NCBI GenBank assembly: GCA_050084515.1
Contig: CM114271.1
Coordinates: 22,568,001-22,632,000, forward strand
Length of the DNA: 64,000 bases
Direction: 5' to 3'
From: Blasia pusilla
Lineage: Eukaryota
Within the stretch, counting starts at the first letter, position 1; every line of letters starts with the position of its first letter. The notes under the pieces were generated by a model. It saw nothing but the letters and a program-made list of their open reading frames with translations, was not told the origin of the DNA and ran no database searches. A program made the position numbers and the translations under genes. This document shows, piece after piece, positions 8,158-45,800 of this stretch.

Positions 8158-8920
8158 ATTGGAGATATTTTGGTATTTCTTGTCTCGTTGTTTGGATGCC
8201 ATGAGTAAGCATGGGATCGTGCGTGTTTGTGTGTATGTTTGTCGACATGGATGTATGTTGTGTAGCGATGTGAATGTGCACAATAACTGTCAAGTTTTTT
8301 AGGATAGATCGGAGAGATCTGGTAGAGCGACTTTGCGAGTAGAGGAGGACACGCTCAAGAGGTCGAGGATGACCTATTGAGGTCCTAGGAAACCTGAGAG
8401 AGCAGGTTTTCCCTTCGTTTCGGCTCATTTGGAGCCATATAGAGAAACTTACTATTTTGGGTAAATTTCCATATTTGGTAGAGTTGAATTTCCACTTTAG
8501 GAAGTGGCCCTTGACCCACTAGAGCAGGTCAAGAGCCAAGGAGGTGACCTGCGATCATAAGTTACCGAGGAGAGAGCTTGGGAGAGGGAAGGGAATATAC
8601 CTCAAGGAGAGAGAGTTTGAGAGCTCATTTTATCTTTGTTGAACCTCTTGGCATGAGGCGGCGGAGCTATGGTCCCTTGCCTTGTGAGTGTAACCCAAGC
8701 CTCTCATTAAGAGAGTGGGTTTGGTTTGACATTGAGAGAGAGTGCACACATTTGAGAGCTATGGTGTTGAGAGAGATTGGATCTACTTGATTTATTGGAG
8801 ATATTTTGGTACTTCTTGTCTCGTTGTTTAGATGCCATGAGTTAGCATGGGATCGTGCGTGTTGTGTGTATGTTTATCGACAGCGATGTATGTTGTATAG
8901 TGATGTGTATGCACACGACA
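8158..8920 (+). repeat. E1 3' split direct repeat block: B1 (8158-8285), ac, A2 (8288-8793), B2 (8794-8920)
   Basis: B1 and B2 are ~127-bp direct repeats starting attggagatattttgg. A2 starts TGTCA and matches 44141-44435 and 52915-53320. Purine tract tagggggcga precedes B1. Confidence 0.88.
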
Positions 8921-9438: not shown

Positions 9439-9645
9439 CAAGGTTGCACGGAAATTGACAGGCGTGGCCCGCATCCAAGCCCGTCCAAAGCCCACCGCGT
9501 AGACCCGGGCTGACATAACCCGGATCTACACGGTGGGCTCTAGGGCGAGATCGAGTGCGGGCCGTGGGTACCCAGGCCCGCACGGACATAAGTCCGCGAA
9601 CATGGACATATCCGCGGATACGGACTTTGTCCGTGTACAACCCTA
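9439..9645. mobile_element. hAT-type MITE
   Basis: TIR caaggttgca...tacaacccta; perfect 8-bp TSD ctcataat (9431-9438 and 9646-9653). Confidence 0.85.
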
Positions 9646-11712: not shown

Positions 11713-14536
11713 TTACCCTAGAACATGTCTGAAGTTCACGAGGAACAGGGCTACTAGGCAGCCCATGGTCATCACGATCGATATTTCCGATCCTTGGCCG
11801 GCGCCGCTGCCTGGAACGTTTCCGCCGGTCGTGGTGGTAAGATTACTGCTCACCCACAACACGCCCGATTAGTGTGCGGAATGGGAGTGATACTTTAATT
11901 CGGCGCACATCTCCCAAGGCACGAAGACTGCATATGAAAAAGAAAACCACATGTCCACCAAGCATCTTCTAGCACCAGGACTAGCTTGCACACATCCCCA
12001 GAGCCCTAGGAAGCCAGCCCATGTCTGTAACTCCAAAGATGAGTGGACCGGCGTTGGACTGGCATCAAGAGCTGCACCTCCACTGCTGGGAATAGGGTCA
12101 TGGACAGAAATGCAAATGAAAAGAGCGAACGAGGAGGCAGAATCTGTACCTGGCCTGGTATACGCAACCTTGGTAACCTGCACAAAACAGACAGACGGAC
12201 ACACAAGGCTTAATGTCCGTCCACTGGAAGCTCCAATAAAAGTATGTCTAATCCCACATTCGAATTGCTCCAATGCGTTTTGATGGCGAGGAAACAAAGA
12301 GGCCACCCATTTACTCGAAACCATGATAGGCCATCAATTGGATAATTCTGAGGCACAGCCAGCATCCTCGATTCACTGACAATCAAGTGATCGAGCTAGA
12401 ATCCGAGCATAAACACGAGACGGTATTCAGAACGTGTTGAGCTTACTTGGATTGTAGCTGACAATTTGCCCAACACCTCTGAAGTCACATGTGTCGGGGG
12501 CGTTCCCGTTCTTTTGATAGTAGCTGTTGAAGGCCCACGAAGCGTGCGACTCAATCGTATCGGGGAGGAAGCAGGCGGCCCCTTTCTTGATAGTTGAGCA
12601 ATTCACGCCTCCTTGGCCGCAAGTCCAGTCCAGAGCTTGCTGCAATCCCTGTTGACTGACTTGCTTCTTCGCTACACACCAAGTCTGGTATGTGGTACTG
12701 TTGCCGGCCAGCACTCGACCCTGACCAGTAAGATCGACATTGTACAGTGGAGTCAGAGTGTTTGTGAAAAGGCCGTAGTTGCGCTCTGAAGTGGGTCCAG
12801 TTCTGAGGTCCTCGTCGAAGAGCTCGTAAATGTAGACAGAGAGAGGGGCGGTGGGCTTGTACGGAGTACCCATTACACTCCTGTTGTAAACGCGCTTCGC
12901 AAGGTTTCCATTGTACTGAGCAGCATTGACGGTCGTTGCACCGAACTCATTGGCGTCTCCTTGAGAAGGCCAGCCCGTTTCAGTCACCACGATGTCAATT
13001 TGGCTGAAATTTAGAGCTGCCATGGCGTAGTAGCCGGCATCAACCAAAGCGTCGAAGAGACTGCTGTACTCCAAGTTGGAGTATGTGTCCGGCACAGGGG
13101 TGACGGGCTGAAACAGGGCATACTGAAGGTCCACAGCCTGAAGATTGGACTGGTAGGTGTAGTATGGGTATACATTGAGCATCAGGCTTGATCCAGTGAG
13201 GGAGAGAAACTGCAACAGGGGTATGAGGACAGGGACCAGAGTCTTGTTGAATGTAGATTGAGAAGGAGGGAAAGAATTTTGGAAGATGTCAGTGCTGTGG
13301 GGCGTGGAGACACTAATTTGGGAGCTGAGGCCATTCGCGACTAGCGCGTCATTGACCCACAGCATGGTTCGGACGAGGGTAGTGGAGAAAGATGGGAAGC
13401 TAGTGAGCACTTCGCTGCCCACTGCAATCGCTGTTATGTTCACAGTGCCTGCGTAGGGCACCACATTGTCCATGACCCACGATGCTGCGGTAGCATTTGT
13501 TCTTCCGACATCGGCGAGCTGATCGTTGGGGATTCCGATGATCACCGTTATGCCAGAACCGGCGAATGCCTTCAACACATCCTGGTTGGTGTCGTAGATT
13601 CTTACGTGCTCGACGCCGTTGTCCTCCAGAAGCTTCACAGTGGAGGACGGAATGGGAACATTGCTCCCCTGTGTGCCATAAACCACCCCAAGGGTCGCTC
13701 CTGCAGCTCCTGCACCATCCACGAAAGAGATGTACGTACGATGTGAGGTACTCAGTCTATTATCTCTCATTCCAAAGACAGCTAGAAAATCTTTCCGCTA
13801 CTAGCACAGATGACGCAAACCGATGGCCTTCGCCACGTCTCGCGGTGATCCCGGATTATCAGGGTCCGAGCCACCGGGCGACACGGCCTTAGACTCCGAG
13901 CAGCAGGGGCTTCGCCGACAGATTCAACAGACTTCGCTCGAGCTGAAATTTATTTGTCGGACGAAAGTGGATAGAGCCATTCAATCTGAGACTATAAGGG
14001 GTGGCGATTTGCTACTTCGCTCAACTACCAGGCAAAACGTTGGACATGTCTTTGCGCGACTAGAGTTCAAGAAAAGTGCAGGATCACTCGCTCATAAATC
14101 TGAGGGTTTATCGGGGGAGGGAAGGGGGACAGTGACATAATTTCATTGACAAAACACCTTGACTGTAAAGCTTCGGCACACCCGCAGAGGAATTCGTAGC
14201 TTTCGTACAACAACGGCTATGGTGGCAAACCCATCTAAATCCCTTCCTTCAGACAGCTGTGGTGCAAAAAGTCCAATTGCGGGACTGGGCATCCACCAGC
14301 ACGAGCCCGTCCGTGAGATGGGTAAGAACATCGGATGTAAAGCAGGCCTGTGCTCGCACGATTACACGAAGAGTGGATACAATCAGTCCATGAAACACAT
14401 GAGCGATGGGGATTCGCGTGTCCGGGCACTAGCACCGACCACTCGACGGGAACTCACCGGCACACTGAATGAGAAGAGCGACGAGCAGAGTCTGCAGCGC
14501 GAAGAAGAGACTGATCCGTTGGGTAATCCTACCCAT
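11713..14536 (-). CDS. Glucan endo-1,3-beta-glucosidase (GH17 + X8/CBM43 + GPI-anchor signal), about 500 aa, 4 exons: 14536-14458, 13709-12447, 12177-12150, 11845-11713
   Basis: Exon 1 is a signal peptide (MGRITQRISLFFALQTLLVALLIQCA). GT-AG introns keep the frame. GH17 motifs GVVYG, AVGSEV, NVYPY, VTETGWPS, YELFDED, ERNYGLF; X8 WCVAK...ALDWTCG...CDFRG; hydrophobic C-terminus. The exon 2 acceptor could alternatively be 13700. Confidence 0.93.
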
Positions 14537-18555: not shown

Positions 18556-20811
18556 TTACACATCCATAATTTTTTCACTTGGGTCTAAAGCATTTAAATT
18601 TACAAGAACCTCTGGTGGAATTTCTATCTCAGAAATATATCTCTTAGGTTTGGCATACACATAACTAAAGTGTGCTGAATTCTTCCAAAGAACTACAAAT
18701 TCAATCAACAAAGCTTCATAATCATCGATTTTCCCTTCTAAGGCAATCCTAAGAACAGCATCCAAATGCTTTGTCATTAACCTATTCCTACTTTTAGTCT
18801 TAATCACATTTTGCACAGAGAAAGCTCTCTCACAAATAGCAGTACTAACACACTGTATCCTAGCAATATTGGCTAAAATGAGCAAGTTAGAGAACTTACA
18901 TTGCAAGGACAGGCTCCAACTTACCATAGCCCACAAGTCCTTGAAGTTCCGATCTTTTCACTCCGTGGTGGCCATGAGATTAAATGATAGAAACTCTTGT
19001 TTCACAGCTCCTACACTTAGTAAATAAGGTTGCAAGTAACCTTTGAAGGGTAAGTCCGTCCCAAAATGTGCACAGAGGTCATCCAATTCCTTACAACCCC
19101 AACTATTTAGTCCCACTTGCCTTGAAGGCATGTGTAGAGGATTCATTATCCTCATAGCACTAATCAAGTTGTTATCCCTAAACCGATCTCGTAAAGCTAC
19201 ACAAACACTCTCAGAAAAATTATTTTGAAAGAACAAGGCAGCCTCTAGATCCTTTCCTGTCCGATTCCTCAACATTTCTATGCAATGGAACTTTTTGCCC
19301 CTAACATCTGATTGTAAACGTTTCAAATAACCCCCTGGAGGACCAAAGTTTGGTAGAATGTGATAACCACTTTCTTCAGAGAAAGTGGAGGCATTCAGAT
19401 CAGGATTCTCCATAACAAAATTCATTGTTATGGAAGCTATTTCAGAAGTCACTATACTACCTATGGTACTAACATCTACAAACCTATATTGGAACACCTT
19501 ATTCCAGTTAGCAAGAAGAAACAAAATATCTGCCAAAAAGTACAGTTGATAGATCATCTGAAATGATCTGAGTTTGTTATGCAAATTTGCAGCATTACCA
19601 TCATCTTCCGAGGGTGAAATATCTCTGAAATATGTAAGGATAGATTCCAATGAGTCACATAAAGTAGTAACAGCCTGCCAACGTGACAACCAGCGAATCT
19701 TGTGGTACCTCTTCATCACTTTCTGAGAATCGTTCAACTTCTCTTGCAAAGTTGCAAGACCGCACTTCCTCTTGGACGACCTTCTGAAATATCCAGCTAC
19801 AGCATTCAAGATTGAATCTACTTCTATAGATATTTCCTTACACCCAACACTTTTTTCTGTTGTTAAAGCAGCGAGATTTGTCCTGTGCGCCACACAATGC
19901 ACAGACACCATAAAAGGATTGAACTTCTGTTTCAGCTCCGATGCTACTCTGTTTTGGCTTCCTACCATAGTAGAAGCTCCATCAGATCCAAAGGCCACCA
20001 GTTTTGATCCCTCAAGTCCCGAATCCTTTATCAACTCCAACAAATTGTTAGTGATTGCGTTCGAACATTTCTCTGGACATTGTAGCAATCCTATAAAACA
20101 ACTCTATACCTGCCCCTCATCTAAGTAAGTTGCAAATACAACAAGGTGTCCAGTGACAAATATATCTTTAGACTCGTCAATCATTATCCCAAAAAAAGGA
20201 GATTGTTGCACTTTAGAAAGGTTCCTCTTGAGAAGAACCTGGCTAATATAATAACACATATCATCACAACTTTTTTCATCTTGGTACAAGTCGCGGGTTA
20301 TAGGTGCATTCACAGAAATCAATAACTTGCACAGATTTGAGAACTTTGAAAATGGCAAGGCTTCCTTTGCAACGAAATATGCACATTTAAACAAAGTCAA
20401 AAGTGCAATATCACAAGTCCGATTCGTAGTGGCTATAGCCTTGGCCATGGGTCTGTTCCCCACATTTGCAGCCCATGCAAGCTTCATGTGCTCATTAGAC
20501 TTACCATGATCTGTGAAGGTCGAAACCTTACAGTTAATGGCACCATCCCTAGCAAAGGAGCTTTTCCCCTTACGCTGTCAATAAACTTTGCAAAAAATCC
20601 GACCAGATTCTACATGGAATTCTATCCAATCGAACAAAGTATACCAAACATCCTTCCAAGCCAATTTGTTATTCTCACTCTGACTTGTCGGAGTATTTGA
20701 TTTGTCCCCTTCTCTCCCATCTGATGATCCTGACCTACTGTTCTCCTCTGCAAAGTCTTGACTAACTTCCTTGTGTAGCATCTCATTTATTGTTTGCTGT
20801 CTCTTAGCCAT
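18556..20811 (-). pseudogene. hAT transposase (ZNF862-like; TTF-type zinc finger, DDE core, hATC dimerisation domain), one 752-codon frame with 3 premature stops
   Basis: Four ORF-track segments are all in the same frame. Motifs MIDESKD, GSDGASTMVG, HCVAHRTNLA, IRWLSR, STAICERAFS. Confidence 0.88.
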
Positions 20812-28200: not shown

Positions 28201-30805
28201 CTTTAGTCGCTCAAAAACCTCTTAATGTTCCTCAAACCATCGAAACACTTTTTCTTTCCGTGTTCGGGTTTGAACCTTTTGGGTTTGAACCCCATATGTC
28301 GACTTAATTCATTGGGTTTTCTCTAATTTGTTGTGCCAAACGGTGCCCCTGCCTTCATAACATGGACCATCTTGTCTAGCTTCTCAAGACTTGGATCGTC
28401 CGCCACTAGTGGAGTAGCCATATCAATGGCCACCTTTAGCTTCCCAACTTGGTTGTTGACATAGTACTTTTCTCCCTCAATTTTCATTTCAAATTGGGTG
28501 GCATTGCCTCCACAAAGTCAAAGATTTGATTGGCGTCTCACATATCGTCCATCACTGCCAATATCTCTTGGAATTGAGTAATAAAGCTCGCAATGGAGCC
28601 TCCAAAGTGCATTTGCCACAACAAAAATCTAGCTTGAGTTGCTTGATCTTGAGGTGTCAAAAACATCCTCATTTTTTAAGGTAAGTATCCCCTAATCCTA
28701 TCATGCACCTACTCCCCACACCAATCTTATGTGTCTATGAAGTTGGCATTCAATATGTGACGCTTACCAATTTATACCCAAACACAATTAGATAAGCATG
28801 GTTGCACAAAAACGGATTAGTGCGTCCTATGTCACATCTGAGTAGCCGATAGGCCGAGATCTATCGTGGATAGGGCGTAGGAGCCATCGGACTATCTTGA
28901 GTGTAACTTTGTCCCACAGTGTCGGATGAGGTTGAGGATAGGTCCATTGTGTCAGGAACGTCGTCTCTGACAACTTTCATATTGAGGTCTTTCACAACCG
29001 GGTGACTTGTTGACCAGGTCACCCACCCCTGGTAACTTGTGCGTGCAACTTACCAAGGAGAGGGCTATTTTTAGGGGAAGAGCCTTTGGCTCTTCCCAAC
29101 CCTATATAAGAGAGGAAGATGGATTTCCTAAGCCATCTTTCTCATGTTGGGCCATTGGTGCACCTCCCTTGTATGTGTGTGAGATAGGACTAGGGTGCTA
29201 GCGTCCAGATTCCTTGATAGCACATGGTGGACGAGGCTCGATATGTCAATGTAGATTGAGGAGTGGATTTTTAGGCCGGGTGTGCCGTTTTTACTACTCT
29301 TTATTTTTACATAAGAAAGATGTCAGGGGGCTGGTGGAAATTCGTTGTTTGCAGGTAGGCAAGCGAGTTGCCTTGGTCGGGAGCTCGTGGAGACGTTGGT
29401 TGGCGTCGTATTTGTCATTTTTCTGTTCGGATGGCCGTGGGCGGAAGCGCTGTCCGTTTTTCTCAGATTTTTCTGGTGTGGATTGATGGGGGACATCAGC
29501 AGGGTGTAGCGCAAGTTGTGTCAGCATGAGTAACGTCGTCTAATAGCTAGAATGTCGGGAGTACCCAGGAAGAAGAGTTAGGGCTTGCAGCGGTCGGCGG
29601 GCTATCAAGTAAAGGGTGGATTGGTCGCCTAGGGTTAGGTCGCGCAAGTGATAGGGGTAGGGCACTATGCGTGGGAAGGAAGGCGCAGGAGGTAGCTAGG
29701 TCGGGACGAGTAAAGCTCGCGAATCGTGTGGTTGCCAAGTGTCACACGGGGGAGGTCTGGTGCACCAGGTGCAGAGGGACGTGCGTCACACGCTCGGAGG
29801 ATGCAAGGAAGCAGGGCCGCAACCGCATAGGGCTACGTGCCCTCAACGCGCCACGTAGGCCCAAGGCCGTGGTAGAGAAGGGAGAGCTGGGAGCAAGGAG
29901 CTCCAAGAAGCCCTTACTCCTTCCTGTCGCGCAAGCAGAGGTGGGAGGTCAGCCTTTGGGGCTAGGGCCGCAGGTTGGGGGACGCCGCACCGGGCCATGA
30001 AGGAATGAAGGTGGGAGCAAGGGCTGACCGCATAGGGCGGCATGCCCAAAGCTCCAAGGACATAGGAAGCTGCATAGGGCAGCGCACCAGGGTTGAGTTA
30101 GGACTGAGGTACGTGGTTTCCGTTTAGCCGGACGGAGTGGAGTTGGTTACGCGGTAGGTTCAGACGACATGGTAGGGTCAAGATGTGGTGACCAGGTCAC
30201 CAGGTTGGAGATGCTTATGTAGTTAGGAGAGTTATATGGTTGGGGTCAAGATGGACCCTCTACACTGCTGAGCTGACAATGGAGAGTTAGTGTGCTGCTG
30301 TTGGTGAGTAGTCCGTATCCGCTGACGGGAGGATCGACTTGATGCGGGCGGACATGGTTGTGATTCGGAGGTTGTCATGTCAGATGGAGGAGTGCGTATT
30401 GATGGTGCCGTAGGTTGGAGGGCATGATCACGTTACCCATTCAAGTCCCTTTTCCCGCACTTGTCGTGTGTGATTAAGAGTGCTGAGTATCGGGTAGTAG
30501 CTGGTGCTAGGTGGGTGCAGTGATGGTGACGAGTGTAGATTATGTTCATGTGTAGCATGTTGGTGGATATACTTCGGTTTTCAAGTAGGGGTCGCGTGTA
30601 TGATCCGAGAGAGTGTCGCTAGGTTAGGTGAGTCAGTTGGGAGGCTCATGGTGAGCCCGAGTGTTGAGTGTGCGTGAGGCCGGGTATGTCATCACGGGAT
30701 TGATGTTAGCATATGTGAGCTAGTGAGGCATGTGGGAGACTCTCGGAGACTCTGAGTGCTTGAGCGGGTGAGACCGGGCTTGTCATCACGGCGTTCTTCC
30801 AAGTT

Positions 30806-32374
30806 TTGGAAGAACGGGGTAGTGCGAGCAGTAGTAGTGGTGTGACACGGAGTGGAGTGAGATACCGAGGGGTTACCAATGAGGAGCTACCTCGACATCC
30901 ATCCGTGGCTGGATCGTCATCACTAGACATTGGGTCTGGTGACGAGATCGCTGACAGACACAGTAGTACTTGGCAGGAGATGGACAACATGGGCCATCGG
31001 GGCATGCGTCGTTTCTCAGGTGCAGTGGGCACCATCGACTTAGATGATTTTATCCAGGAGTTCGACACGTGATGCGACTTCCAGGAGATACGGACCCCGA
31101 CACAGTTCAACCCTTTCATGGCATGGAAGGGGTTGTTCCAGCACTTGGAGGGTCCTCCGATGGATGACTATATGGAGTTTTGATCACTATATTCAGTAGA
31201 GATCGATGCCTGTAGGATGTATTGGGCTCCAGGGTATGTGTTCACTAGTGGTCGCAAGGCATATGATGGGATTATGAGAGGAGAGAGACCCACACCATCA
31301 GCCCGAAGACTAGATGGAGAGGAGGGCAGTGAGACAGGCGATGTGGCAGAGACCTTTGGTGGTAGAGGGCCACCCACCTTCAGCCCCACAGTGGAGTTCT
31401 TCCGACAGTTGAGGAAGAGCTACCAGGGCGTACGCACCGACAAGCTGAAGAGTCTATAGGATTTTCAGTGACGATCGGGTGAGAGTCTAAGAGAGGCATT
31501 CACACGCATGAGGAGGCTGATCCTTGCTACGTTTGGAGTGACTGAGGCGCAGTCATTCCGGTATTGGTACGGGGTTCAGGATCAAGAACTACGGAGGAGA
31601 GTGCGAGATGCAGTGCTGATTCACACAGCAACGCCCACATTGAAGGTGGTCTTTGAGTTGTCTGAGCGTATTGAGCTCAACATGAGTGAGGAGCAGGTAG
31701 TGACCGGTGGATTTTCTCAAGAGTCAACGGGTCCACGAGCGATGGTGAGCCCAGAGGTGCCACAGCGAGCACCAGTACCACGGGAGCGGGCCAGTGTGCC
31801 CAGAGAGCAAGGCGGGTACCGTGAGCCTATGAGCCAACGACCCGTACCTACATATGTTGCCCAACAGGGATTGATGTGGTCTTGTTGGACGTGTGGAGGG
31901 GCCCATAGGCAGAGAAACTGCCCACAGCATGGGAGAGGACCACCAACGCTTCCAATTGCTCAGGAGCCACAGAGGATGGTCCCACCACAGCACCAGTGTG
32001 ACTATTGCCACAAATATGGTCACACTAGGGATAGATGTTTTGACCTTGGCCGAAGGGCACGTCCAGAGGTAGGCCGAGGGCCTGGGGGCGGTCGTCCTGG
32101 AGGAGGTCGGGGAGTCCTTCTTGGACGTGGTGGTAGAGGACCACCACCAGCCAGAGGAGATGGAGATGGAGCAGGAGCACCAGAGCCGGCACTTCTCTCA
32201 CGCATCAATCAGTTGGAGCATAGGATTTCTGCCATGATGATGATGCAGCTTAGGGAAGGCAAGCAGCTGCGAGCAGCTAGTGTGACTCGAGCTTCTACCT
32301 CTTACCGTGACCCGAGTGAGGATCTTGCCAATATGGGATTTATGTGTAGTGCAGCCCATGTTGAGGCACTGTAG
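30806..32374 (+). pseudogene. gag: E3 gag remnant
   Basis: FSGAVGTIDLDDFIQEFD; knuckles CWTCGGAHRQRNC and CDYCHKYGHTRDRC; GRGPGGGRPGGGRG tail. Confidence 0.82.
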
Positions 32375-33829
32375 TGGTGACTCGGGGTGCTGCGAGAGGC
32401 ATCGAGCCATCAAGAGGTGGAGTTGAGATTGACCCACAAGAGGGGACCAATGGGCGGCAGGCCAGGGTTCCACAGTCATTCACATTGTCGGAGGCACTAC
32501 ACACACCATTGATGGTGCCTCAATGACTAGCAGTGCCTACAGCTCAGGTACCTACGTGGATGTCACGAGGAGTTGGAGTGACAACTCCTATGCCGGCTCG
32601 AGTGGAGTCAGTGTCAACCATAGTGTTGGAGGTGGCCACCAGAGTGAGTCAGACTCCACTATTTTCCGCCATAGAGTTGGCGACGTTGGGAGTTGGACCA
32701 GCTGAGGTGTTCCGATTGGCCGCCACGTTGTGTGAGCATGGAGAGATGACTGCTTCTTGTTCAGAGGTAGTTGAGGAGGTGGTGGACTTGCCCTCAGAGC
32801 CAGTGCTCGGGACGTTCCTCACCGAGTCATGGCATGCGGCGGCGGCGAAGTTGGTAGATATGCCAGCTCGACCGCACATAGAGTGTTGTGCGCCTACTCT
32901 CCTTGAACGTTAATCTTGTTTGTTGCGGAAGCGTGCGTTCAGTAGGTCACGCTCTCAACGCTGATCTGCATCCAAACACGCACTTCGGTTAGTCGGGTCT
33001 TGGATCAATCAGCGGGATTACTATCCGAGTTCTCGTCTCGGACTCTCTCTTCAAGCTCAACCTTCCTAGTTTCGCGGTTTCCAACACGGGCAAGTCTCGA
33101 AAGACTTGGGACAGACTTTCTGGTCGGTTCAAGAACCTGAAACGGCGTTTCGCGGCTAGCAGTTCCAACTATCCGATGAACATCCAATGAGTTCCTCACC
33201 AAGACTCGCACGAAGTGAATCTCGGGTTGGAATCCAAGTGTGGCGCACAAAGTCCACTCCTTGGATCAGGTTTGGGTTTCGGGTTTCGCGCCAAACTCCC
33301 GTTTCATCCGTGCCTCAAACGCCGTTTGGCGCCCAAAGTGGGGTTTCGTTTCCCGAGACATCTCAAAGAAGGTACTCCCCTTACTAGTACTTCTGGGGAT
33401 CTCCGGGGCCCCTACATTTAGGAAAGACACCGGGCCCTCCATTGGCCCTCAACCCGATTGCTCTCTGAATCGTTTTCGGCCAATATCTCAGCTTGTACTC
33501 ATGCGTTTTCTGAGATCTTTGGTGCGTTGGAAGCGTCTTGAGATCAGCTTTCCAACGCGCCCTTACTTGTCCCGAACGCATCTCGGAGCTCAACGTTATG
33601 GTCCTAAACACAGTCAGATTCTCCCAAACGCTAGCCGTGTTCCAAACTGGTTCTCACCTCTTTGGCAACCAACCTCCAAGACTCAACTCATCTCAAGTCT
33701 CGGCTCGCGTTTGGTCTAGGTTTCCTGGTCGCGACCACTAACGCATGAAACGCACAACTCTGTTCCACGTTTCGTCTCTTAGACTTTTCCAAGAGATTCT
33801 TCCAAACGCCTCTCCAAAGCGCAAACCTC

Positions 33830-34530
33830 GCAGTTGTTTCTGTTATCTGCAGTACGGGGATATTATCATACGCTACTCGCCGACATCTCTTTGGTGGGGG
33901 CGCAGGATCTTGATAGAGTTGGCACCATTCATTTGGTGATTGCTGGATGGCCATGTCACGGTCATTCATCATCTGGCCGAGGATTTGGATTGCAAGATCC
34001 GAGGTCAGGGATGTGACGAGTGTACATCAGGTGAGGTCTTGGTTGGGACCTGTTATGTTGTTAGATGTAACGAGAGTTGGGTCACGTGCCCATCATCCAC
34101 GACTATGGTGGACGAACCTGATACCATCAGAGGTATTGAGTCGAGCATACGGTGGAGTCCAGAGAGCAGCACATCTCACAGTGGATGCTATTTTGGGCTC
34201 AGGGCGTCGATCTTAGGTGGTGACACGCGATGATGGACCACCGTTGGCCATGGCTAATAGGGTGGGGGAGTTGAGGGCAGCCTTACCTATGTTGGTGAGC
34301 TTCCCAGCATCCCTTGCCTTTCGTCAAGGAGGGCTAGGCATGATTTGGGATGAGGTGACCGGAGCATTGGAGGAGCCTACAGCAGATGAGTGCGAATGCG
34401 CCATGGGGTTCGCTACCGGTACTACGGCGGTGCCAAGGATGAGTGAGGCATCCCGGAGATAGGTGTTGGGGCAGGCGATGGACCTCAACTGTCTCACATG
34501 GATAGTCAGCCTAGGTATGGCTGAGTAGAG
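33830..34530 (+). pseudogene. E3 partial DNMT3-like methyltransferase
   Basis: HLVIAGWPCHG...GLQDPRSG, AHHPRLWWTNL, ECECAMGF...SEASRR*VLGQAMD; motifs I and VI are missing. Confidence 0.85.
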
Positions 34531-34879
34531 ACGGATGTGAGAGTCATCCATGATGTCACGTCGACGAGTTGGACCATTGCCTACAGGGTCTGTACAGGCA
34601 TTGGCTGGGGGCGAGACGAGGAGAGATAGGCATCCATGGACTTCCTAGAATGTCATTCGAGCAGAGAGTGCGAAGGCGTCCAGAGTAGCACATGTTCCAT
34701 TTTTTGATGTAGAGCATGGTGTAGGAGGTCAGAGTGGAGTGGTTGTTGCGGAGGTGGCTAGGGTTGCTACATAGCAACCAAAGCCGGAGGTTGCGTCCTC
34801 TCTAAGTGAGGTCACGATGGAGACTTGGGAGCCTGTGATAGGTCTCAAGTTGATAGGTGGAGAGCGACGGCGAGCTCAT

Positions 34880-37837
34880 AGGTTTTTGAGAGGGCATGTC
34901 AGTTGTTTTGCCTTCAGTATGAGAGACTTGGGTACGCTGAAGGGTCCCGGGATACCGATTGAGTTGGCTAGTGATACGCCGATCTTTCGTCGACCCTACA
35001 GGTATTGTGATATGGAGCGAGCCTTGATTTAGAGCAAGAGGCAAGACTTGTTGGAGGTAGGACTTGTGGAGTTATCAAATGGGGAATATGCATCTGCCAG
35101 AGTCATGTCGGCAAAGAAGGATATGTATGGCAATTGGACGGATAGGCGGATGTGTGGAGATTACCGTCTTATCAACCGACAGACGAGGTCAGATCGGTAC
35201 GCCATGCCTACTCCTGAGGAGATCTTTGATGCGGTAGGGCATGCAAAGATCTTCAGTACTTTAGATCTCCGTGCTTGCTATCATCGGCTTCCTATCAGGT
35301 TGGAGGACAGGGAGAAGACAGCATTCTAGGGGATAGATCGGTTCGGGAGAGATTGCTTGTATCAGTGGCGGTTCTTACCATTTGGGTTGAAGAACGTGCC
35401 TGCACAATTTTGGAGAGGGATGGATAGGATTCTGGATGGCTTGGATTGTGTACGATGTTACATAGATGATATTCTTATCTTGAGTTCCACGGTTGAGGAG
35501 CATGAGCGACACTTGGAGGAGGTGTTTTGGCGATTGCAGTTACATGGACTGAAGTTACATCCAAGCAAGTGCAGATTCTTTCAGGAGCAGATTGAGTACT
35601 TGGGACACACCATATATCCGAGTGGGTTAGGCGTTCAGCAGAAGAAGGAAGAGGCGATTGCGCAGATTCCACGCCCTACAGATGTAAGTCGAGTCCGAGC
35701 ATTTCTTGGACTGGCGAACTTCTATCGACGGTATGTCAAGGGTTTTAGTGCGATCGCAAAGTCTTTGACCTTGTTGACGAGACTTGATCAGGTTTGGTTA
35801 TCGGGAGATGATTAGTAGCAAGCATTTCAGGAGCTCAAGGATAGGTTGACGTCCTCACCAATTTTACAGAGACCGGTTAGGGGTCGCCCATTCTAGTTAC
35901 ATACGGATTGGAGCATGTTGGGTGTAGGAGCAGTGCTTACTCGGAGGGATGACGAGGAGAGGGAGTTCGTTGTGGCTTACGCGAGCCGATCGAAGAATAT
36001 TGCAGAGGTGAAGTACATCTCCTACGAGGGAGAGTGCTTGGCTGCAGTGTGGGCCGTGGCACATTTCAGGTGCTATTTATTCGGCAACCCTTTCACACTT
36101 ATCACTGATCATCAACCGTTGAGGTGGTTGATGGAGTCCGACAAGCTTGCAGGAAAGCTTGCCTGGTGGGCTCTATTACTACAGGAGTATGAGTTTGAGG
36201 TGGTTCATAGGCCAGGTCATCTGAACCAGGATGCGGATGGATTGAGTCGTAACCCATATTCAAGTCAGAGAGACAACACAGGAGCTCGATGGCACGGAGA
36301 GAGTGATGAGGAGATGGTGTCCGGTTGGCATGCATCTGCCTATCTTTTTGGTTGACTATGGCAGGTCAGCCACAGGTGATGACTCCAGTGGTGGGGTTGG
36401 ATGATGAGTCTTTGGATTCAGAGGTTAGTGGGGAGGCGACAGGTGGTCGTGATATCCATAACGACGTGGAGGTTGTGGAGTTCTTGTGCACTGGCGTCAT
36501 TGCGAGTACAGTGAGTGCTAGGGAGCGGGATCGCATCCTACAGAGAGCCAAGAGGTTCAGGTGGGAGGGGACTCACATTTTGCAGGTATGGGGAGATGGT
36601 AGGATACGAGTGGTACCTCATCCTTCCCAACGAGCACGTGTAGTGCGACATGCCCATGAGGAGTTGGGACATTTCAGAGTAAAGCGTACTTACAGCTTAC
36701 TCCAAGTTTAGTATTGGTGGCGCGGCATGCATACTGGGATACAACAATTTGTGGCCAGATGTATGGTATGTGACAGAGTGCGAGCATCCTTCAATGCTCC
36801 CACTCCGCAGTTACATCCTTTGTCGATTATGGGTTTAGGTTATCGGTGGAGTTTAGACTTTGCGGGATCTTTGCCATTGACGGGGCGTCATCATAGGTAC
36901 ATGTTGGTCATGCTGGAGCATTTCTTCAAGTGGATAGATTTGGTGGCCCTTCCAGACAAGGCGATCGAGGGAACAGCTTATGCGTTTCTAGATCGTGTGC
37001 TTAGTCACTTTGGTGCACCGGCGGAGGTGTTGACTGACCACGGTACCGAGTTCAGGGGAGAGTTTCAGGCCTTGTGTGATCAGACGCTGATAGATCACCG
37101 CACCACGTCAAGAGATCATCCTGAGGCGGATGGGTTGGCGGAGAGAGTGGTACAGACGGTGAAGAGAGAATTGCGCAAGTATGGCTTGCAGTGGGTACAG
37201 TTTAGGGAGTGGGACCTATAGTTGCCATGGTTGGCTATGGGTTATCGCTTTAGTCGGCAGACATCCTTGGCGTCATTTTCACCGTACTTTTTGCTCTTTG
37301 GGAGAGAGCCAGATTTACCTGCAACGATTCGAGGTGACATAGCGGAGGTGTTAGATCTTGATGATCCAGATGTGTGGGTACAAGCATGTTCTCAGAGGGT
37401 GGAGGTTTTTCATAGAGTTATGCCTATGGCCTTTGAGAACTTTGCTATTGCTCAGCATAGAGATACATTGAGGTACGCGACCATTCGTGGAGGAGTTTAT
37501 TGTCTAGGGATTAGGAGGTTTCATCCTCGAGATTACCTGTATTTACAGCAGGCGGCACCCACGACGCTAGATGTCACTGCAGGGCGCACGATCCTACGTG
37601 TGCACGAGGTATTACCGACCGGAGTCCTCATGTTGGAGGGACGGGATGGTATGGTTTGGAAGGATCATGTGCGCAATTGTGCGCCATGTCATCTTCCGAA
37701 CGTAGATGGGACGGTGGATCCGAGCTTGGCAGCGGTACCTGCAGGCTTGAGGTGTATGTTGTGCGGATCTGCGAGGGATGCAGCCACCATGTTGGTATGT
37801 GATGGTTCTTCTAAAGGGTGGCATATGTCATGTGTGA
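34880..37837 (+). pseudogene. pol: E3 RT, RNase H, integrase and first part of PHD
   Basis: MCGDYR, LPFGLKN, YIDDIL, FLGLANFYRR, AYASRS, TDHQPL, LDFAGS, TDHGTEF, DGLAER, CMLCGS...VCD...GWHMSC. Confidence 0.93.
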
Positions 37838-38591
37838 TTTCGTGCGAATCCACATCGTCATACAACATACATCGCTGACATACCATACTCACATACGTAC
37901 ATAACATAGACGAGAGTATCCACAAACGCAAGTGTACCACAACTGAAATCCGTGAAAGACCTACTGTCATAAAACACGTTTACAATCACATACAATCGAG
38001 CCAAACCCACTCCACGATGGGAGAATCTAGGTCAAAGCTTGCGGGAAACACCATAGACAAGAGCTCTACTCACTACCAAGGCTAACTCCCAACGCAACAG
38101 GCTCAACTCAAAGAATGATTTGTTCTTTGAGTGCACTCCACCTTATATCCTCCAACCTAAGAGCGGGCCCTACTGGGAAACTCACCCCCAACTGAGTAAC
38201 CCCCAACCCTATGTATGGAACCGCATCTCTACCAAGCCACTACGGTCCTACATAAGGAATGTCCTCTACTAGCACACTATACTCTACGACATAATCCGTA
38301 TGGTCATGACAGTTGTCGTGCGAATCCACATCGTCATACAACATACATCGCTGACATACCATACTCACATACGTACATAACATAGACGAGAGTATCCACA
38401 AATGCAAGTGTACCACAACTCGCCCCCCTAACTGGCGGTTAGGTCCCTCTAACTCCCAGGTAGCCCTATACATCTACTACATGCTATACACCTTCTTGGG
38501 TGCCCGAATCAGAAGGCCGGGTGCTAGGTTGCCCCATCGTTAGTCGCACATCTGTAATCCATATCATGCAAAGATCAAGTCATCTACTCTC

Positions 38592-40560
38592 CTAAGTACA
38601 TCGAGGACAAACCCACCTTCCAGTAGGAACGACATCCAAACATGGAGTCAAACACATCATGTGCCAACCCCTAGAACACCGATCACATACCAACATACGG
38701 GCTGCGTTACCAGCAGACCCACACAACATGCACCTCAAGCTAGCAGGTATCATGGCTAAGCTTGGATCAACAGTACCATCCACATTTGGAAGATGACATG
38801 GCGCACAATTACGCACATGGTCCTTCCAAACAACTCCATCACGACCCTCCAACATGAGAACTCCAGAAGCTAACACCTCGTGGACTCGTAAAATAGTGCG
38901 GCCTACCGTCACATCCAACGTTGTCGGGGCAATCTGCTCCAAATAGACATAGTCCCCCACATGGAACCTACGAATCGATGGTCGATAATCTCCACCTCGA
39001 ATGGTTGCATACCGCAACGTATCCCTGTGTTGAGCAATGGCAAGATTCTCAAAGGCTGTTGGCATAACTCTCCGAAAGAGCTCCGCCGCTGAGAACACAT
39101 CCTCATCCACATCTCTCGGGTCATCAAGGTTCACCACCTCACTAGACTCCCAACAATTCTTCTTTGGCAAGTCCGGATCTCGGCCGTATAACGTAAAAAT
39201 AAGGTGAGAAGGAAGCCAAGGATGCTTGGCGATCGAACCTATACCCCATGGCTAACCATGGCAACCGAATATCCGGTCTCCAAGATGCCCCTTCAGAGGC
39301 CATACTTGCGCAATGCCCTCTTCACCGCCCCGAACCACACGCTCAGCCAAACCATCCTCCTCTGGATGATCTCGAGACGTGGTCCGATGATCAATCAACG
39401 CCTTGTCATACAAGACTGAAACTCACCCGAAACTCAGACTGGTCGGTCAAGACTTCAGGTGGTGCACCAAAATAACTAAGCACTCTATCCAGAAACGCAT
39501 ACGCCATTCCCTCACTCGCCTTGTCCGTAATGCCACCAACTCAATCCACTTGGAGAAGTGCTCCACCATCACCAACACATATCGATGATGCAAATGCGAC
39601 CAACGGTAACGGTCCCGCAAAGTCCACACTCCAACGGTAACCCAACCCCATAATAGGCAAGGGGTGTAATTGTGGTATAGGGGCATTAAATGATGCCCTC
39701 ACCCGGTCACAAACCATACAACGTGACACCAAGCTCGCTGCACTGAGTATGCATGCCACGCCACCAATATCGCCAAGGAGTAAGCTATACGTGACGCTTT
39801 ACCCCAAAATGTCCCAACTCCTCATGGGCATGTCGCACAATGCGCTCTCTCGAGCCAAATGTGGCACTACTCGTACTCTACCATCCTCCCACACGCGGAG
39901 AATATGTGTTCCCTCCAATCGATACCTCTTAGCACGTTGAAGAACACGGTCTCGCTCCTTGGCACTCACTATGCCTGGCACCCTCTTTTGGTCCGTAGGA
40001 ACTCCAACACCAACGCATCATCATGAATATCACGCTGATCCGTACCACCATCTCCAACCTTAGGATCTCAAGGTGGCCATCTACCCCCTCGACTAGAGTA
40101 AGATATCACGTGGTCCTCCATACTAGAGTCCACCTAACCAACATAAAAGGCGGATGCATGCCAACCCGGGCACCATCTCCTCATCAACCTCGCCATGCCA
40201 TCTAGCCCCTGTTGTATCCTCTTGGCTAGTACATGGGTTCCTACTCAACCCATGCATCAAGGTTGGCAACTCCAGGTCTATGTACCACCTGGAAGTCATA
40301 CTCCTGTAAGATAAGAGCCCACCGTGCAAGCTTCCCTGTAAGCTTGTCCGACTCCATCAACCACTTGAGCGGTTGGTGATCAGTATCAAGGGTAAACTGG
40401 GTGCCAAACAAGTAACACCTAAAGTGTGCCACAGCCCACACTACTGCCAAGCACTCTCCCTCATATGAACTATAGCGCGACTCCGCTGCATTATTCGAAC
40501 GACTTGCATAGGCCACCACAAACTCCATGTGCTCATCATCATATTGTGTCAACACCGCAG
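38592..40560 (-). pseudogene. E4 RNase H, integrase and intact PHD finger
   Basis: AYASRSNN, TDHQPLKWL, VDFAGPLP; CMLCGSAGNAARMLVCDRCSRGWHMMCLTPCLDVVPTGRWVCPRC (C4HC3). Confidence 0.9.
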
Positions 40561-40561
40561 T

Positions 40562-41598
40562 TCCTACGGTGTGTTGACACAGTTCCTACGTGCTCATAGA
40601 AGTTGTTTTGCCTTTAGCATGAAGGAGTTGGATTCTCTGGTTGGACCCGGTATACGGATTGATTTGGCTAGTGATACGCCAATCTTCCGTCGTCCCTACC
40701 GATATAGTGATATGGAGAGGACTTGATTGAGTAGGACGTTGGACCTTTTGGAGGCTGGATTAGTGGAGTTGTCGCATGGAGAGTATGCATCGCCCATTGT
40801 CATGCTCGCTAAAAAGGATATGCATGGCAACTACACGGATATGCGGATGTGTGGAGATTACCGTCCTATCAATCGGAAAACCAAGGCCGATAGGTATGCC
40901 ATGCCTACACGAGGAGATCTTTGATGTGGTGGGGACAGAAAAGATTTTCAGTACTTTGGATCTTGAGGCGAGATACCATCAATTGCCGATTCGGAGAGTG
41001 ACAAGGCCAAGAAAAGACATTTTGGGGTGTCAACTCTCATGGCAAGGATTGTTTGTACGGTGGAAATTCTTACCCTTTGGGTTGAAGAATGCACTGCCGA
41101 GTTTCAAAGAGTGATGGACAGGATCCTAGCAGGGGTTGGATTTTGTTGGTGTTACATTGATGATATCTTGGTGTTGATAACACGGTGGAGGAGCATCAGA
41201 TACATTTGCAGATGGTGTTTGAGCGGTTGAAAGCTCATGGTCTACGTTTGCATCCAGGAAAGTGTAAGTTCTTCCATGAGGATGTTGAGTACTTGGGTCA
41301 TGTGATCTATCCAGGTGGTTTGGGAGTTCAGCAAGCAAAGGTGGAGGCTATTGCACTTATTCCGCGTCCGGTAGATGTGAGTAGAGTTCGAGCATTCATG
41401 GGATTGGCGAACTACTATCGGAGGTATGTGAAGGGATTTAGTGCTATGGCAAAGCCTTTGAACCAATTGCTGAAATCAGATCAAGAGTGGCACTGGGGAG
41501 ATGATCAGGAGAGAGCTTTTGTGGAGCTTAAGGCCCAGTTGGTGGCGGCGCCTATCTTGAGGAGACCTATCAGAGGGCGCCCATTTCAGTTACACACC
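40562..41598 (+). pseudogene. E4 reverse transcriptase, inverted relative to the rest of E4
   Basis: MCGDYRPIN, LPFGLKNA, YIDDIL and FMGLANYYRR on the plus strand, between minus-strand RH and MTase. Confidence 0.85.
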
Positions 41599-41949
41599 TT
41601 GAGCGTCGTTTCTCACCTCCCGTAAGCTTGGGCCTAAGTAATGGCTCCCAAGTCTCCTCCACTAGCACACTAGAGGGAGAGGACGATGCCATTGGTCGCA
41701 TAACCCCCTCACAAGATGGTACACCCTAGCTACACCATCATCGAGCAAATAACTCCTCCACCAAAGCATGAGCAACCAACTCCACATGCCCGCCATTACA
41801 TCCCATTTACCCAAGGATGCAAAATACTACTGTTCCATCCGCTTTGTTATGCCGTGATGCCTCTACCGCCCGGGAGCCATCGAGCTCATTACAAGGGGTG
41901 GAAGACCCAAAGACATAGTCCGAAGTCGACGCTGCTCGGCCATACCAAG

Positions 41950-42850
41950 ACTCAAAATCCAAGTCAAACAATTCAGGTCCATGGCTGACCCAACACATGA
42001 CGCCGTGAAGCCTCATAAATAGAAGCAACCGATGTCACACCAAAGAGTTAAATCCCATCGCACGCTCTCTCATCGCGTTAGGCTCCACCAAGCGCCGCAC
42101 ATGAGAATCCCATACAAGTACCCGGGACCACCTTCCCCGAGGCATGTGACGCGGAAAACTCACAAATGTGGGTAGTGCCATCCTAGGTGGCCCACACGGT
42201 TCACTTGCCATGCTTGGGTGACCGATCAATAACCCTCACCACTTGAGAAAGTTCGCCAAAGATTCAAGATACTATCCACTGTAAGGCGAGGATCCATCAA
42301 CGCATCATATGCTCCGAGAACCTCCCTAGGCAACAAGTTTGTCCACCACAAGCGTGGGCGATGTGCATTGAGCGTTATTTAGGAACGCATCAACAACCGC
42401 TGGTCCAATCAAGACCGCACCTCAAAAACACCGCCATCATCCGGTCCAGTGTCACCCAACAATGGAACATTCTCGAATGTAAGCTAGAGCACGTGCTCGA
42501 TGAACCGCGGAAGATGTCGTAACACCCGTGAACATCTCCCAAAACAATCGAGACCTAGGGTCATGTAATCCCTCACCACGACCAAATCAGACGTGATGAC
42601 TGGACATGGCCATCCCATCAATCACCAAATGCAGGAAACCCTCTCAAGGTCCTGCGCCCCCAACAATGCAATGTGTGATGGTAAAGCACGCTGGTACCCA
42701 CGAATAGCTGATGGCGGCAACAACTCAGGATATCTCCGCATCAACTGACCAATATGTCGGGATGAGACTCTATGGGCCGTCTCATCTCGCTCCACATACA
42801 CGTATCTCCGCACAGGAATACCGGCCTGCAACACTGCCGCCAAACCAGTG
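41950..42850 (-). pseudogene. E4 DNMT3-like methyltransferase remnant (indel-rich)
   Basis: LAAVLQAGIPVRRYVYVE, GWPCP-like motif IV, DPRSRLFWE, ENV, HRPRLWWTNL, ERAMGF; truncated before motif I. Confidence 0.8.
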
Positions 42851-45800
42851 GAGTAGGTCTTTTTTCAACTTCTATGGAGGGATGGAATTATTTAGGGAAT
42901 TGGGGTGCTATTTAAATTTTAATTGAGGAGTGAATTAATTAATTAAGTGGAATGTTATTACTCCTTTAAGATTTAAGAAAGTGGAGATTATATTTAAATT
43001 TTGAAATGAAAAAATATTTCTAAATTATTAAAGAAAATCATTTTCATGTGCAAGAAAGAGCATGTTAACGAGTTATTGTGATAATGAGATGATCTTTCAA
43101 AGTTTGATGGTTGCAAAAGATATTTTTTACCTTACTTTTATTTTTGGATGTCAAATTTCATTCCTTAAAGATAACTCTACATACTTCTAAGATATCCATG
43201 AAGGCTTTGACATATTTTCAAAAAAAAAAAATTTTTTTTTTACTCAAGAAAAATCATGGAGTAATAAAATGGAACTGGTTTATGGTGCCCAACAAAAGGA
43301 TATCACTCCGTGCTCAACATGCATCCTTGGCATTGTTTTCACCATTTTGCTCTATGGGGAGAGAGTCGGACCTACCTATAGCTATTCAATATGATATGGT
43401 GGAGGCGTTGGTTTTGATTTTGATGTTTGCAAGCCTATTCATAAACAAAAGCGGAGTTTTTTTCAGAGAATTATGCCTATGGCATTTGAGAACTTAGCTC
43501 TTGCTGATATAGTGATACATTAAGATATCAAATCATTCGTGGAGAAGGTTATTGTCCAGGGATTGGGAGGTTCCATCTTGGAGATTATGTGTATTTATAG
43601 CAAGCGGCCCCATGCTCTAGATGTCCCTATAAAATAATTTTGAGTGTCGCAAGGTGTCACTAGGGTTGAGATTATGTGAAACATCAAAAGTCCGTGTCCA
43701 CGAGCATGTCCATGTCCGCAAGCCCGTTATACAATGTGGGCCACAACCTCCCCAAGCTCACTCACCACCAACCTCCCAAGTAGATCCAATCTCTCTCAAC
43801 ACCATAGCTCTCAAATGTGGACACTCTCACATGGCTGAATGTCAAACCTTACCCATTATCCTAATGAGAGGCTTGTGGGATTACACTCACAAGGCAATCA
43901 AGTGCATAGCTCTACGGACGCGGGTCTCATGCCAAGAGGGTTCAACAAAGAGAGAATGAGCTCTCAAGCTCTCTGTTGGAGGTATACTCGGGCCTGGTTC
44001 CCTCTCCCAGGCTCTCCAAAATCTTGGTGTAGGCTCTACTAGATCTTGCCTAGTCGGCTCAGCTAAGGGCGGGCCTTTAACAAACCAGTCCGCACTTGCA
44101 CTAGGACCGTGACGGTCCTAGTGCAAGCTTAAGCGTGGTTTGTTACAAGTTTTAGGATAGATCGGCAAGATCTAGTAGAGCGGCTTCGAAGATTTTGGAG
44201 AGAGCTTGGGAGAGGGAAGGGAGTATACCTCCAACAGAGAGAGCTTGAGAGCTCATTCTCTCTTTGTTGAACCTCTTGGCATGAGGCGGTAGAGCTATGC
44301 TCTTGCTTGCCTTGTGAGTGTAATCCAAGCCTCTCATTAGGATAATGGGTAAGGTTTGACATTCAGAGAGACATGTGAGAGTGTACACATTTGAGAGCTA
44401 TGGTGTTGAGAGAGATTGGATCTACTTGATTTACAAAGAGAGAATGGGTGAGTGAGTGAGCTTCATGGGGGAGCTTGCTGGTTTTTCAGGTTGGGGATTG
44501 TATAACTCGTGCAGCGGTTCATGGGAGTGCTCATTGGAGCAAGAGCCGCTTACTTTTGATGTTTCCTTTGCCGATTTTTTGTGTGAAAGAGTGGCGCGCG
44601 AAAGCACTACCCAATTTTTTATAGGGATTGAGCATGGGGGCGGGTTGCCCCATTTCGGTGCTCTGAGGGACATCATGTAGCTTGCTGATTTTTATTTTCA
44701 TAGGTTTTACATTTTAGTGGGAGAAATCACGTGGAACACTCAAATTTTGCATAGGAGACAAAGACATTGGGCTGCATGGGTCCCTGTTTGTTTTTGGTGG
44801 AAAATCAAATGGAGAAACCAATTTGACAAAGTCATAGATGATTTGATATCTTAATGTATCACTATACTGCTAAAGAAAAGGTTCACAATTTGGATATTGA
44901 GCACGGAGTTATGATCCTTTTGTTGCACTGCCATAGCCTTTGTTCCAAGTGTGAGTGAAAATTGAATTTTTGGGTAGAAATTCTTTCTTGAGAGGTAGTA
45001 GAGAAAAAAATCAGTTTACTTGGTGGATGGGACAAGTGAATTCAGCTATTTGGAGGTAGGGTAGTAGATCCCATTTTTGGGGCCGTTGATTTTCAATCTT
45101 AGGAGGGATTTTCTTGGTAAGGCATTCAATTTTTTTGTCAAGAGGGAGTTGTCAAGTAAGGAAAGATCTTGGAGATCCAATTTTCCTCGGGAGTTATTCT
45201 AGTTAAAAAATTAAAAAACTTAAAAATAAATAAAATAAAATTTAAGGTAGGATAATATCTTTTGCAACCATGTCAAACTTTGAAAGATCATCTCATTATC
45301 ACAATAACTTGTTAACATGCTCTTTATGCTCTATGGTCCGTCAATGATTTGAGGGTCTTTAATAATTTAGGATTTTTTTCATTTCAAAATTTAAAATAAT
45401 CTCCACTTTCTTAAATCTTAATGTAATAACATTCCATAATTAATCCATCCGACCTCAATTAAAATTTAAATAGCCCATAATTCCCTAAATAATTCCATCC
45501 CTCCATAGAAGTTGAAAAAAAGACCGGCTCCTCGTGGTTTCACGGCCGGCCATTTGCATTTTTGGATTGATGGGATAGTGTTCCATGCTTTGTTATGCGT
45601 GATTTGTAGCGCTCGGCCATAGAGTACCATCCCGACATATTGGTCGATTGAACGCCGGCCAAGATGCCACGTCGTCGCTTGTGGCCACCGCATCGTCTCG
45701 ATCGCCGAGCGAACCATCACTAGACATTGTATTGTTGTTAAGGAGGGTAGGACCTTTAGAGAGTGTCCGTGCTATTTGTGCGTTAAAATGGAGTGGCCAT

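Follow-up and report, generated by a model that had tools for sequence, protein, structure and literature searches.

Priming of reverse transcription by an element's own RNA (self-priming) is known from the retrotransposon Tf1 of fission yeast, in which the primer is 11 nt long, and to our knowledge it has been proven at the bench only in fission-yeast elements. The description of self-priming in Tf1 and its proposed counterpart in Tj1 have the same elements: a site adjacent to the 5' repeat, complementary to a block of that repeat which is proposed to form the 5' end of the RNA, a duplex longer than the primer, and a cut inside that duplex (PMC4600332, in part). In plants it has been predicted for the Tcn1 clade (chromoviruses of moss and club-moss) and for TAR (Ty1/copia), 12% of surveyed elements (Neumann et al. 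2019, PMC6317226, in part), and for a Selaginella element of the Tcn1 clade there was evidence for neither transfer RNA (tRNA) priming nor self-priming (PMC2864245, in part). KnitGypsy-Dnmt3 of Klebsormidium nitens combines gypsy domains with a DIRS-like repeat layout (legend to Fig. 4c of de Mendoza et al. 2018, PMC5890265, in part). The current study concerns a 64,000 nt stretch of the Blasia pusilla genome (contig CM114271.1, positions 22,568,001–22,632,000; hereafter the window, numbered from its first base), and in particular three elements within it, E3, E4 and E5. These are Ty3/gypsy retrotransposons that, with a probability of about 0.65, self-prime reverse transcription, as Tf1 does. 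The signal on which this reading is built is real, is not a product of chance and covaries; signals of this kind are already known, but this one is new for the lineage and its setting is unusual.

Complementarity between the 5' repeat and the adjoining site

The three elements carry a repeat, A (5' copy A1, 3' copy A2), and a short block within A1 is complementary to a site at the end of A1. In E3 (plus strand) the motif TATATAA (nt 29103–29109) lies 31 nt ahead of the block (nt 29134–29147), the putative first bases of the transcript, which is complementary at 13 of 14 positions, 9 of them contiguous, to nt 29309–29322. The latter sequence, the putative primer-binding site, is made up of the last 3 nt of A1 and the 11 nt that follow. 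The E5 block (nt 44254–44267, plus strand), 30 nt after a TATA-like motif, matches nt 44433–44446 (plus strand) at all 14 positions, and this putative primer-binding site is indicated by its complementarity, by the shuffles and by the cognate pairing described below. In E4, which is read from the minus strand, the block (nt 62917–62926) follows TATAA (nt 62957–62953) by 31 nt and pairs at 10 of 10 positions with the putative site at nt 62747–62756, the last base of A1 plus 9 nt. With repeat ends set from second copies (A1/A2 alignments and the joints between A and a second repeat, B), the first 1–3 nt of the site belong to the end of the 5' repeat, and the site extends 9–11 nt past it. The three matches, the location of the site at and just past the end of A1, and the interval of about 30 nt between TATA and block had all been claimed in a preliminary description of the window, and on re-reading they proved correct.

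When the upstream repeat of each element was shuffled 20000 times with dinucleotides preserved, a match as good or better was found once for E3, never for E5, and 40 times for E4. The best match in the real sequences always lies 170–179 nt upstream of the site. The absence of a TGG, as in sites that pair with a tRNA 3' end, was likewise borne out, as none occurs at the repeat boundary in any family. Since E3, E4 and E5 are related and have a homologous repeat in common, their signals are three versions of one inherited signal and not three independent inventions.

Related loci and covariation

An alignment of 10 full polyproteins was used to collect 76 related loci from metagenome contigs. Their 5' repeats were located through their own 3' copies (5 loci) or by homology to the 3' repeats of other loci, giving 12 further distinct 5' copies. 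In all 12, a site after the repeat is complementary to a block within the repeat, and three of them (L031, L033 and L037b) are decayed. The longest complements in the E4-like group are a 12-mer (L005), a 9-mer (L012) and an 8-mer (L076), and in an AT-rich, moss-like group they are 15-mers (L020, L058, L069) or 10–11 nt in length (L028, L035, L063). The same arrangement thus recurs in two further sequence versions, and the site occurs in five different sequences across the related families. In 12 of the 15 5' copies the best complement lies 30–33 nt after TATA; in 13 of 15 (the same 12, and L012 at 170 nt) it lies 127–185 nt before the end of A. Out of 5000 shuffles per locus, as good a match was reached in none for L020 (15-mer), 6 for L005 (12-mer), 120 for L076 (8-mer) and 178 for L012 (9-mer). 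The lowest-energy fold of the RNA from block to site closes with the block-site duplex in 12 of 12 copies folded, a result that follows partly by construction. Downstream of the matched element in L017, a 12-nt complement with its halves 119 nt apart is found 35 nt after a TATA (nt 9522–9687), and this is a candidate for the 5' end of a further self-priming element.

Pairing across families was scored without alignment, because MAFFT misaligns block and site when families are combined. The longest Watson-Crick run between an element's own block and site is 9 in E3, 14 in E5, 10 in E4, 12 in L005, 8 in L076 and 15 in L020, while blocks and sites taken from different families give runs of 3–7, the exception being E4 with L005, which are one family. 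The earlier claim that the sequences differ between families while the pairing is kept is therefore upheld (8–15 within a family, 3–7 across). When five E4-like copies were aligned, 85% of cells paired, against 28–47% with the register slid by 1–3, and L076 differs from E4 and L005 by two compensatory double changes, in which both sides of the pair are altered. Extended to more families, as the preliminary description had proposed, the covariation analysis points the same way: two further sequence versions, cognate pairing in each, and the double changes of L076.

These results bear on two alternatives. One is that the matches arose by chance or from low sequence complexity. The sequences are rich in purines or pyrimidines, the short matches of L076 and L012 are reached in 2–4% of shuffles, and a scan for TATA followed by a complement of at least 9 nt located 90–230 nt further on, which recovered the known copies, also gave many matches in AT-rich loci and was not used as evidence. 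Set against this are the same position in every family, the 14-mer and 15-mer that were never reached in shuffles, and pairing that is specific to cognate partners; the shuffles, the constant geometry and the cognate pairing lead to rejection of chance, the probability of which is negligible. The other alternative is that a host tRNA fragment or another small RNA primes at the site, with the complementarity to the element's own repeat being only of secondary importance. Plant copia lineages are known to include cases of half-tRNA priming (PMC6317226, in part), and the host tRNA set was outside the comparison. Such a primer is nevertheless very improbable, given five different site sequences, each of which matches its own block and not the others, and the two site bases that L076 has changed together with their partners.

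Between TATA and block there is also a stretch that nearly repeats, in direct orientation, the end of A together with the site (nt 29110–29147 in E3, nt 44231–44267 in E5, nt 62942–62917 on the minus strand in E4, and nt 9809–9833 in L005). In E3, E4/L005 and E5 this near copy can pair with the block as a hairpin. The hairpin was considered as a part of the mechanism and dropped, as it is lost in L012 and L037b and shows no accompanying change in L076.

Repeat layout and probable strand origins

In its own orientation, E4 has the order A1, site, genes, G-run tract, B1 (approximately 105 nt), two bases, A2, B2. A1 (nt 62756–63119, minus strand), which is bounded by the target duplication, is 95% identical to A2 (nt 37944–38311, minus strand). 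B1 (nt 38314–38419, minus strand) is preceded by a G-run polypurine tract (nt 38420–38430), and B2 (nt 37839–37943, minus strand), which has 104 nt and is 99% identical to B1, directly adjoins the last base of A2. The layout is the same in E1, which belongs to the family of E5 (nt 8159–8920, plus strand; B1 at approximately nt 8159–8285, A2 at nt 8288–8794, B2 at nt 8795–8920, with B2 91.5% identical to B1 over 118 nt), and likewise at the 3' end of E5, where A2 (nt 52893–53323) is followed by B2 (nt 53324–53450, plus strand). The E5 A1 (nt 44141–44438, plus strand) is shortened relative to A2 of E1 and aligns with nt 52990–53400 and nt 8470–8870; its start matches that of E1 A2 at nt 8288 and its end was taken from the joint between A2 and B2 of E5. 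A1 of E3 (nt 28828–29311, plus strand, with a start at approximately nt 28828–28830) begins with the A-start motif of its relatives, matching the A2 start near nt 63396, and its end was set by the site that follows. No second full copy of it is present in the window, and an X1 contig joins a piece resembling a B end and an A start to nt 28835, near the start of this repeat. The 3' part of E3 lies to the right of E4 (nt 63248–63393, plus strand) and consists of a polypurine tract (nt 63248–63256), B1 (nt 63257–63393), two bases, and the start of A2 (approximately nt 63396).

Copies therefore come in two forms, seen both in the window and in L007, L016, L022, L035, L058, L063 and other loci: A, site, genes, G run and B (the short form), or the same followed by two bases and a further A and B (the long form). 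The internal joint from B to A in the long form repeats the two ends of the copy. A census of 3' ends covered 42 loci with at least 900 nt after the integrase, several of which are the same place in different metagenomes; 21 of these end in B1-A2-B2, and of the 18 inspected among the other 21, about 15 have a single B followed by unrelated DNA, with no A2. None of the 12 A1 copies from the loci has a B on either side. Two identical long terminal repeats (LTRs) at the ends of a copy were not found, the copies ending in B and not in A. Target duplications of 4 bp flank the copies where A begins and where B ends, perfectly in four of eight copies (L012, L020, L063 and E4) and with three of the four bases in L005, L035 and L058; the duplication is missing in L031. 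Since the duplications mark them, these two ends, of the form TG...CA, are the ones that the integrase joins.

In all families, B1 begins at the base after the G run and B2 at the base after the last of A, and each A copy with an intact 3' end is followed by either the site or B. Judged from this pattern, the end of A and the start of B behave as two DNA-strand origins. Since the A-B joint adjoins both of the places where a strand would start, it supports, independently of the complementarity, the base before the site as the probable origin of the minus strand. The primer lengths that the joint predicts are about 9 nt for E5, 9–10 nt for E4 and 12 nt for the moss-like group, with the duplex continuing 1–5 bp further into A.

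Proposed mechanism and alternatives

Taken as a self-priming system, the elements would work as follows. Transcription would start about 30–33 nt after TATA inside the 5' repeat A, so that the block would provide the first bases of the transcript, with which the 30–33 nt spacing agrees. The first 9–12 bases of the RNA would then fold back over approximately 125–180 nt and form a duplex with the site located just after A. The duplex would reach 1–5 bp further into A, and a cut inside it, presumably by the element's own RNase H as in Tf1, would free a 3'-OH; indirect grounds for such a cut are provided by the A-B joint, which places the predicted DNA origin 1–5 bp inside the duplex. Minus-strand DNA would start at the last base of A, the origin indicated by the A-B joint. 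If the site is re-copied from the primer in each cycle, as in the Tf1 model, block and site would for that reason stay complementary while drifting between families. Plus-strand DNA would start after the G-run tract, to judge from its position just before B. The conclusion of the preliminary description, that these elements self-prime, is thus strengthened by the recurrence of the signal in relatives, the cognate pairing, the double changes of L076, and a joint that places the origin at the base immediately preceding the site.

Some of the same observations would also be accounted for by a long-range stem conserved in the RNA of the 5' leader, serving packaging, dimerisation or translation control in an element that uses another primer. 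Any stem under selection would show such pairing and covariation, the RNA-seq data do not fix the transcript start at the block, and the ability of the block to pair also with the near copy of the site between TATA and block (E3, E4/L005, E5) is a hint of alternative structures. This is considered unlikely, as no other primer site is found beside A, the A-B joint places the minus-strand origin exactly at the site, and a stem alone leaves unexplained the position of the site, directly against the end of the repeat in every family.

Transcription was examined in three stranded RNA-seq runs carrying the same species label, which were mapped to nt 28500–44700 at 90% likeness; depth was read only per bin (30 bins) and at variant positions, which is too coarse to locate start or poly(A) sites. 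The reads lie in the coding sense, with first mates mapping to the minus strand over E3 and to the plus strand over E4, and since they agree with the sense of the coding frames, the families are transcribed. Reads also join nt 40555–40575 to nt 41597–41603 on opposite strands, and for this reason the transcribed copies of E4 are collinear and it is the window copy that carries an inversion. A joint from nt 38278 back to nt 37990 (289 nt, within A2) is present in 3–6 reads per run and is unexplained.

The RNA data are relevant to a variant of self-priming, in which the primer would not come from the very 5' terminus of the RNA; the block would instead be internal, or derived from the 3' repeat copy, and freed by cuts on one or both sides. 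The interval between TATA and block is covered by sense reads at the depth of the block itself, and the block is present in both A copies. On the other side, a start at the block agrees with the 30–33 nt spacing seen in 12 of 15 copies, and in E3, E5, L005 and the L020 group the 5' edge of the pairing coincides with a pyrimidine-purine step or precedes it by one base (in E4 it follows such a step by one base). An internal primer would, moreover, yield strong-stop DNA without the repeated region required for the first jump, and this variant is regarded as quite unlikely.

Several observations weigh against self-priming from the RNA 5' end. Sense depth in the three runs is 27, 20 and 16 at nt 29123, before the block, and 26, 19 and 15 at nt 29154, with no step at nt 29134, and reads from 3' or solo copies that contain the upstream part of A would mask any start at the block. 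In one run, 26 molecules (depth 105) begin at nt 38150, 3 nt before the TATA of E4 A2, which is unexplained. Neither cleavage nor strong-stop DNA has been seen. ARAGORN found no tRNAs in the window and one in the 76 loci, and a tRNA fragment as primer keeps a small probability. L031 and L037b have their best complement elsewhere, all window copies of the elements are degenerate, and the repeat layout is unlike that of Tf1, so that the later steps must differ. Within the E4 group, a shuffle control equalled the observed pairing in 208 of 500 trials, the outcome to be expected from only five sequences, and both double changes belong to L076, that is, to the history of a single lineage. Because this control does not discriminate and the double changes come from one lineage, most weight is placed on the comparison between families and on the constant position of the signal.

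Identity of the elements

The order of domains is reverse transcriptase, RNase H, integrase, both in the window frames and in the full polyproteins of relatives (Pfam), which is that of Ty3/gypsy elements (Metaviridae). The C-terminal tail of the integrase is a PHD finger (PF00628, E = 2.4e-9, nt 38592–39251, minus strand), also carried by relatives of the polyprotein, and a Pfam search of nine window frames found no chromodomain at the C-terminus of the integrase. The term Tf1-like, applied to the signal in the preliminary description, consequently holds for the mechanism but not beyond it, as a PHD finger replaces the chromodomain of Tf1/sushi elements. The closest named relatives of the PHD-finger tail are from Marchantia polymorpha (81% and 77%) and Calypogeia fissa (76%), with green algae more distant, and a search with the reverse transcriptase and RNase H region adds relatives in Klebsormidium, Closterium and Chara. 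Some relatives of the polyprotein (P0049, P0057, P0066 and P0102, two Marchantia records among them) contain, between RNase H and integrase, the domain PF00145 of cytosine DNA methyltransferases; this domain was not found in the nine window frames scanned, the window copies being broken. The best 120 matches of the search with the reverse transcriptase and RNase H region included no sequence named as Tf1, Tf2 or Tcn1.

Short and long forms

The two copy forms pose a puzzle for the replication cycle. Standard two-jump synthesis from the two proposed origins would produce B+A repeats at both ends, of which the genomic copies are circular permutations. The short form would result from cuts at both internal B-A joints, and the long form requires that the end of A be joined to the start of B. 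Plain two-jump synthesis was rejected as a source of the long form, since it gives B+A at both ends or the short form, and a second plus-strand origin at the B-A joint, priming from the RNA 3' end, a jump from B to B and a read-through RNA tail were all set aside on the same grounds. A two-repeat circle opened at the B-A joint does give the long form but predicts an equal number of A-B-A...B copies. None was seen: 12 of 12 locus 5' ends lack a B beside A1, and A1 of E3 and E4 adjoins unrelated sequence and a target duplication. The 5' side of E5 is rearranged and uninformative on this point.

A tentative reading, with the odds somewhat against it, is that this green-lineage gypsy family with a PHD-finger integrase replicates in a manner unlike that of textbook LTR elements. 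Synthesis self-primed at the end of A and started at the G run before B would give a repeat B+A, joining to the host would take place at the internal ...CA-NN-TG... joint between B and A, and insertions would be circular permutations, either short (A...B, with no terminal repeat) or long (A...B-A-B). Permuted insertions of this type need an intermediate with joined ends, similar to a circle, or else integration by one joint followed by host end-joining. Only the long form should found new copies, because only this form has the upstream part of A inside its transcript.

Other features of the window

The window is plant-like and consists mostly of nested, degenerate Ty3/gypsy retrotransposons with reverse transcriptase, RNase H and rve integrase domains. 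The sole clear host gene seen is an uninterrupted frame of 456 amino acids (nt 12427–13797, minus strand) that encodes a beta-1,3-glucanase of family 17 carrying an X8 domain, the nearest protein clusters of which are streptophyte. E4, with everything nested inside it (nt 37839–63119), interrupts the PHD-finger coding frame of E3 (nt 28828 to beyond nt 63400). This frame stops at nt 37838 and resumes at nt 63120, and the target duplication GTGA(T) is found on both sides, at nt 37834–37838 and nt 63120–63124.

Further rearrangements are evident. A reverse transcriptase piece (nt 40577–41598, in the region nt 40576–41597) is inverted relative to the rest of E4, and the RNase H-integrase part of E5 (nt 50465–52901) is inverted relative to E1 and E3. 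An inverted duplication (nt 43777–44428, centred near nt 44111) has a left arm that mirrors the 5' repeat of E5, with the end of A and the site replaced. A tandem array at nt 57585–59240 has a period of approximately 180 nt and about 9 copies that are 61–92% alike. Two frames gave no Pfam match, one of 381 amino acids (nt 18958–20103, minus strand) and one of 269 amino acids (nt 60504–61313, plus strand), the latter lying opposite the E4 gag region and possibly spurious.

Comparison with known systems

If the self-priming reading is correct, a third, unrelated-looking plant lineage self-primes, beside Tcn1 and TAR, in which the mechanism has likewise been predicted from sequence. The lineage ranges from streptophyte algae to liverworts and moss-like genomes, and it bears on the origin of self-priming in plants, which may have come by horizontal transfer with relatives of Tf1/sushi (as argued for Tcn1), may be older, or may have arisen again. 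There are consequences for annotation: software that relies on tRNA sites and paired LTRs will overlook these elements or place their boundaries wrongly, since a second repeat is altogether absent from many copies. The A-B joint offers a readout of both DNA origins from sequence, and the mismatch between these origins and the ends used in integration poses a concrete, testable question on how the complementary DNA is joined to the genome. Literature on PHD together with gypsy, integrase, Marchantia or bryophyte contained no description of priming in this lineage, and among the matches listed for split direct repeats with retrotransposon, mainly tyrosine-recombinase elements were found, plus general reviews.

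In their layout the elements resemble PAT and Ngaro of the DIRS order, which have split direct repeats (A1, genes, B1, A2, B2) and an internal B-A joint that repeats the two ends. Elements of the DIRS, PAT and Ngaro type have a tyrosine recombinase and make no target duplication, unlike those described here, which have an rve integrase and 4-bp target duplications. KnitGypsy-Dnmt3 is similar in uniting gypsy domains with a DIRS-like layout, and polyprotein relatives of the Blasia elements occur in Klebsormidium, some relatives having a cytosine methyltransferase domain; it differs in that no methyltransferase domain was found in the nine frames scanned from the (broken) window copies. The passages of PMC5890265 on Gypsy, LTR, Klebsormidium and PHD mention no primer site, polypurine tract, target duplication or short form, no search having been aimed at those, and PHD does not appear in the main text of that paper.

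With the Tcn1 clade and TAR, the elements share a plant host, the lack of a tRNA site and an LTR-derived complement after the 5' LTR (PMC6317226, in part), but unlike Tcn1 this lineage has no chromodomain; the terms Marchantia, liverworts and PHD have no occurrence in the main text of that survey. As in Tf1 and Tf2 of Schizosaccharomyces pombe and Tj1 of S. japonicus, a site beside the 5' repeat is complementary to a block within the repeat, and a tRNA site is lacking. The Blasia elements differ from these three in their plant host, in having a PHD finger in place of the chromodomain, in a predicted primer of 9–12 nt, in being known from sequence alone, and in a layout of A and B repeats that does not include two full LTRs.

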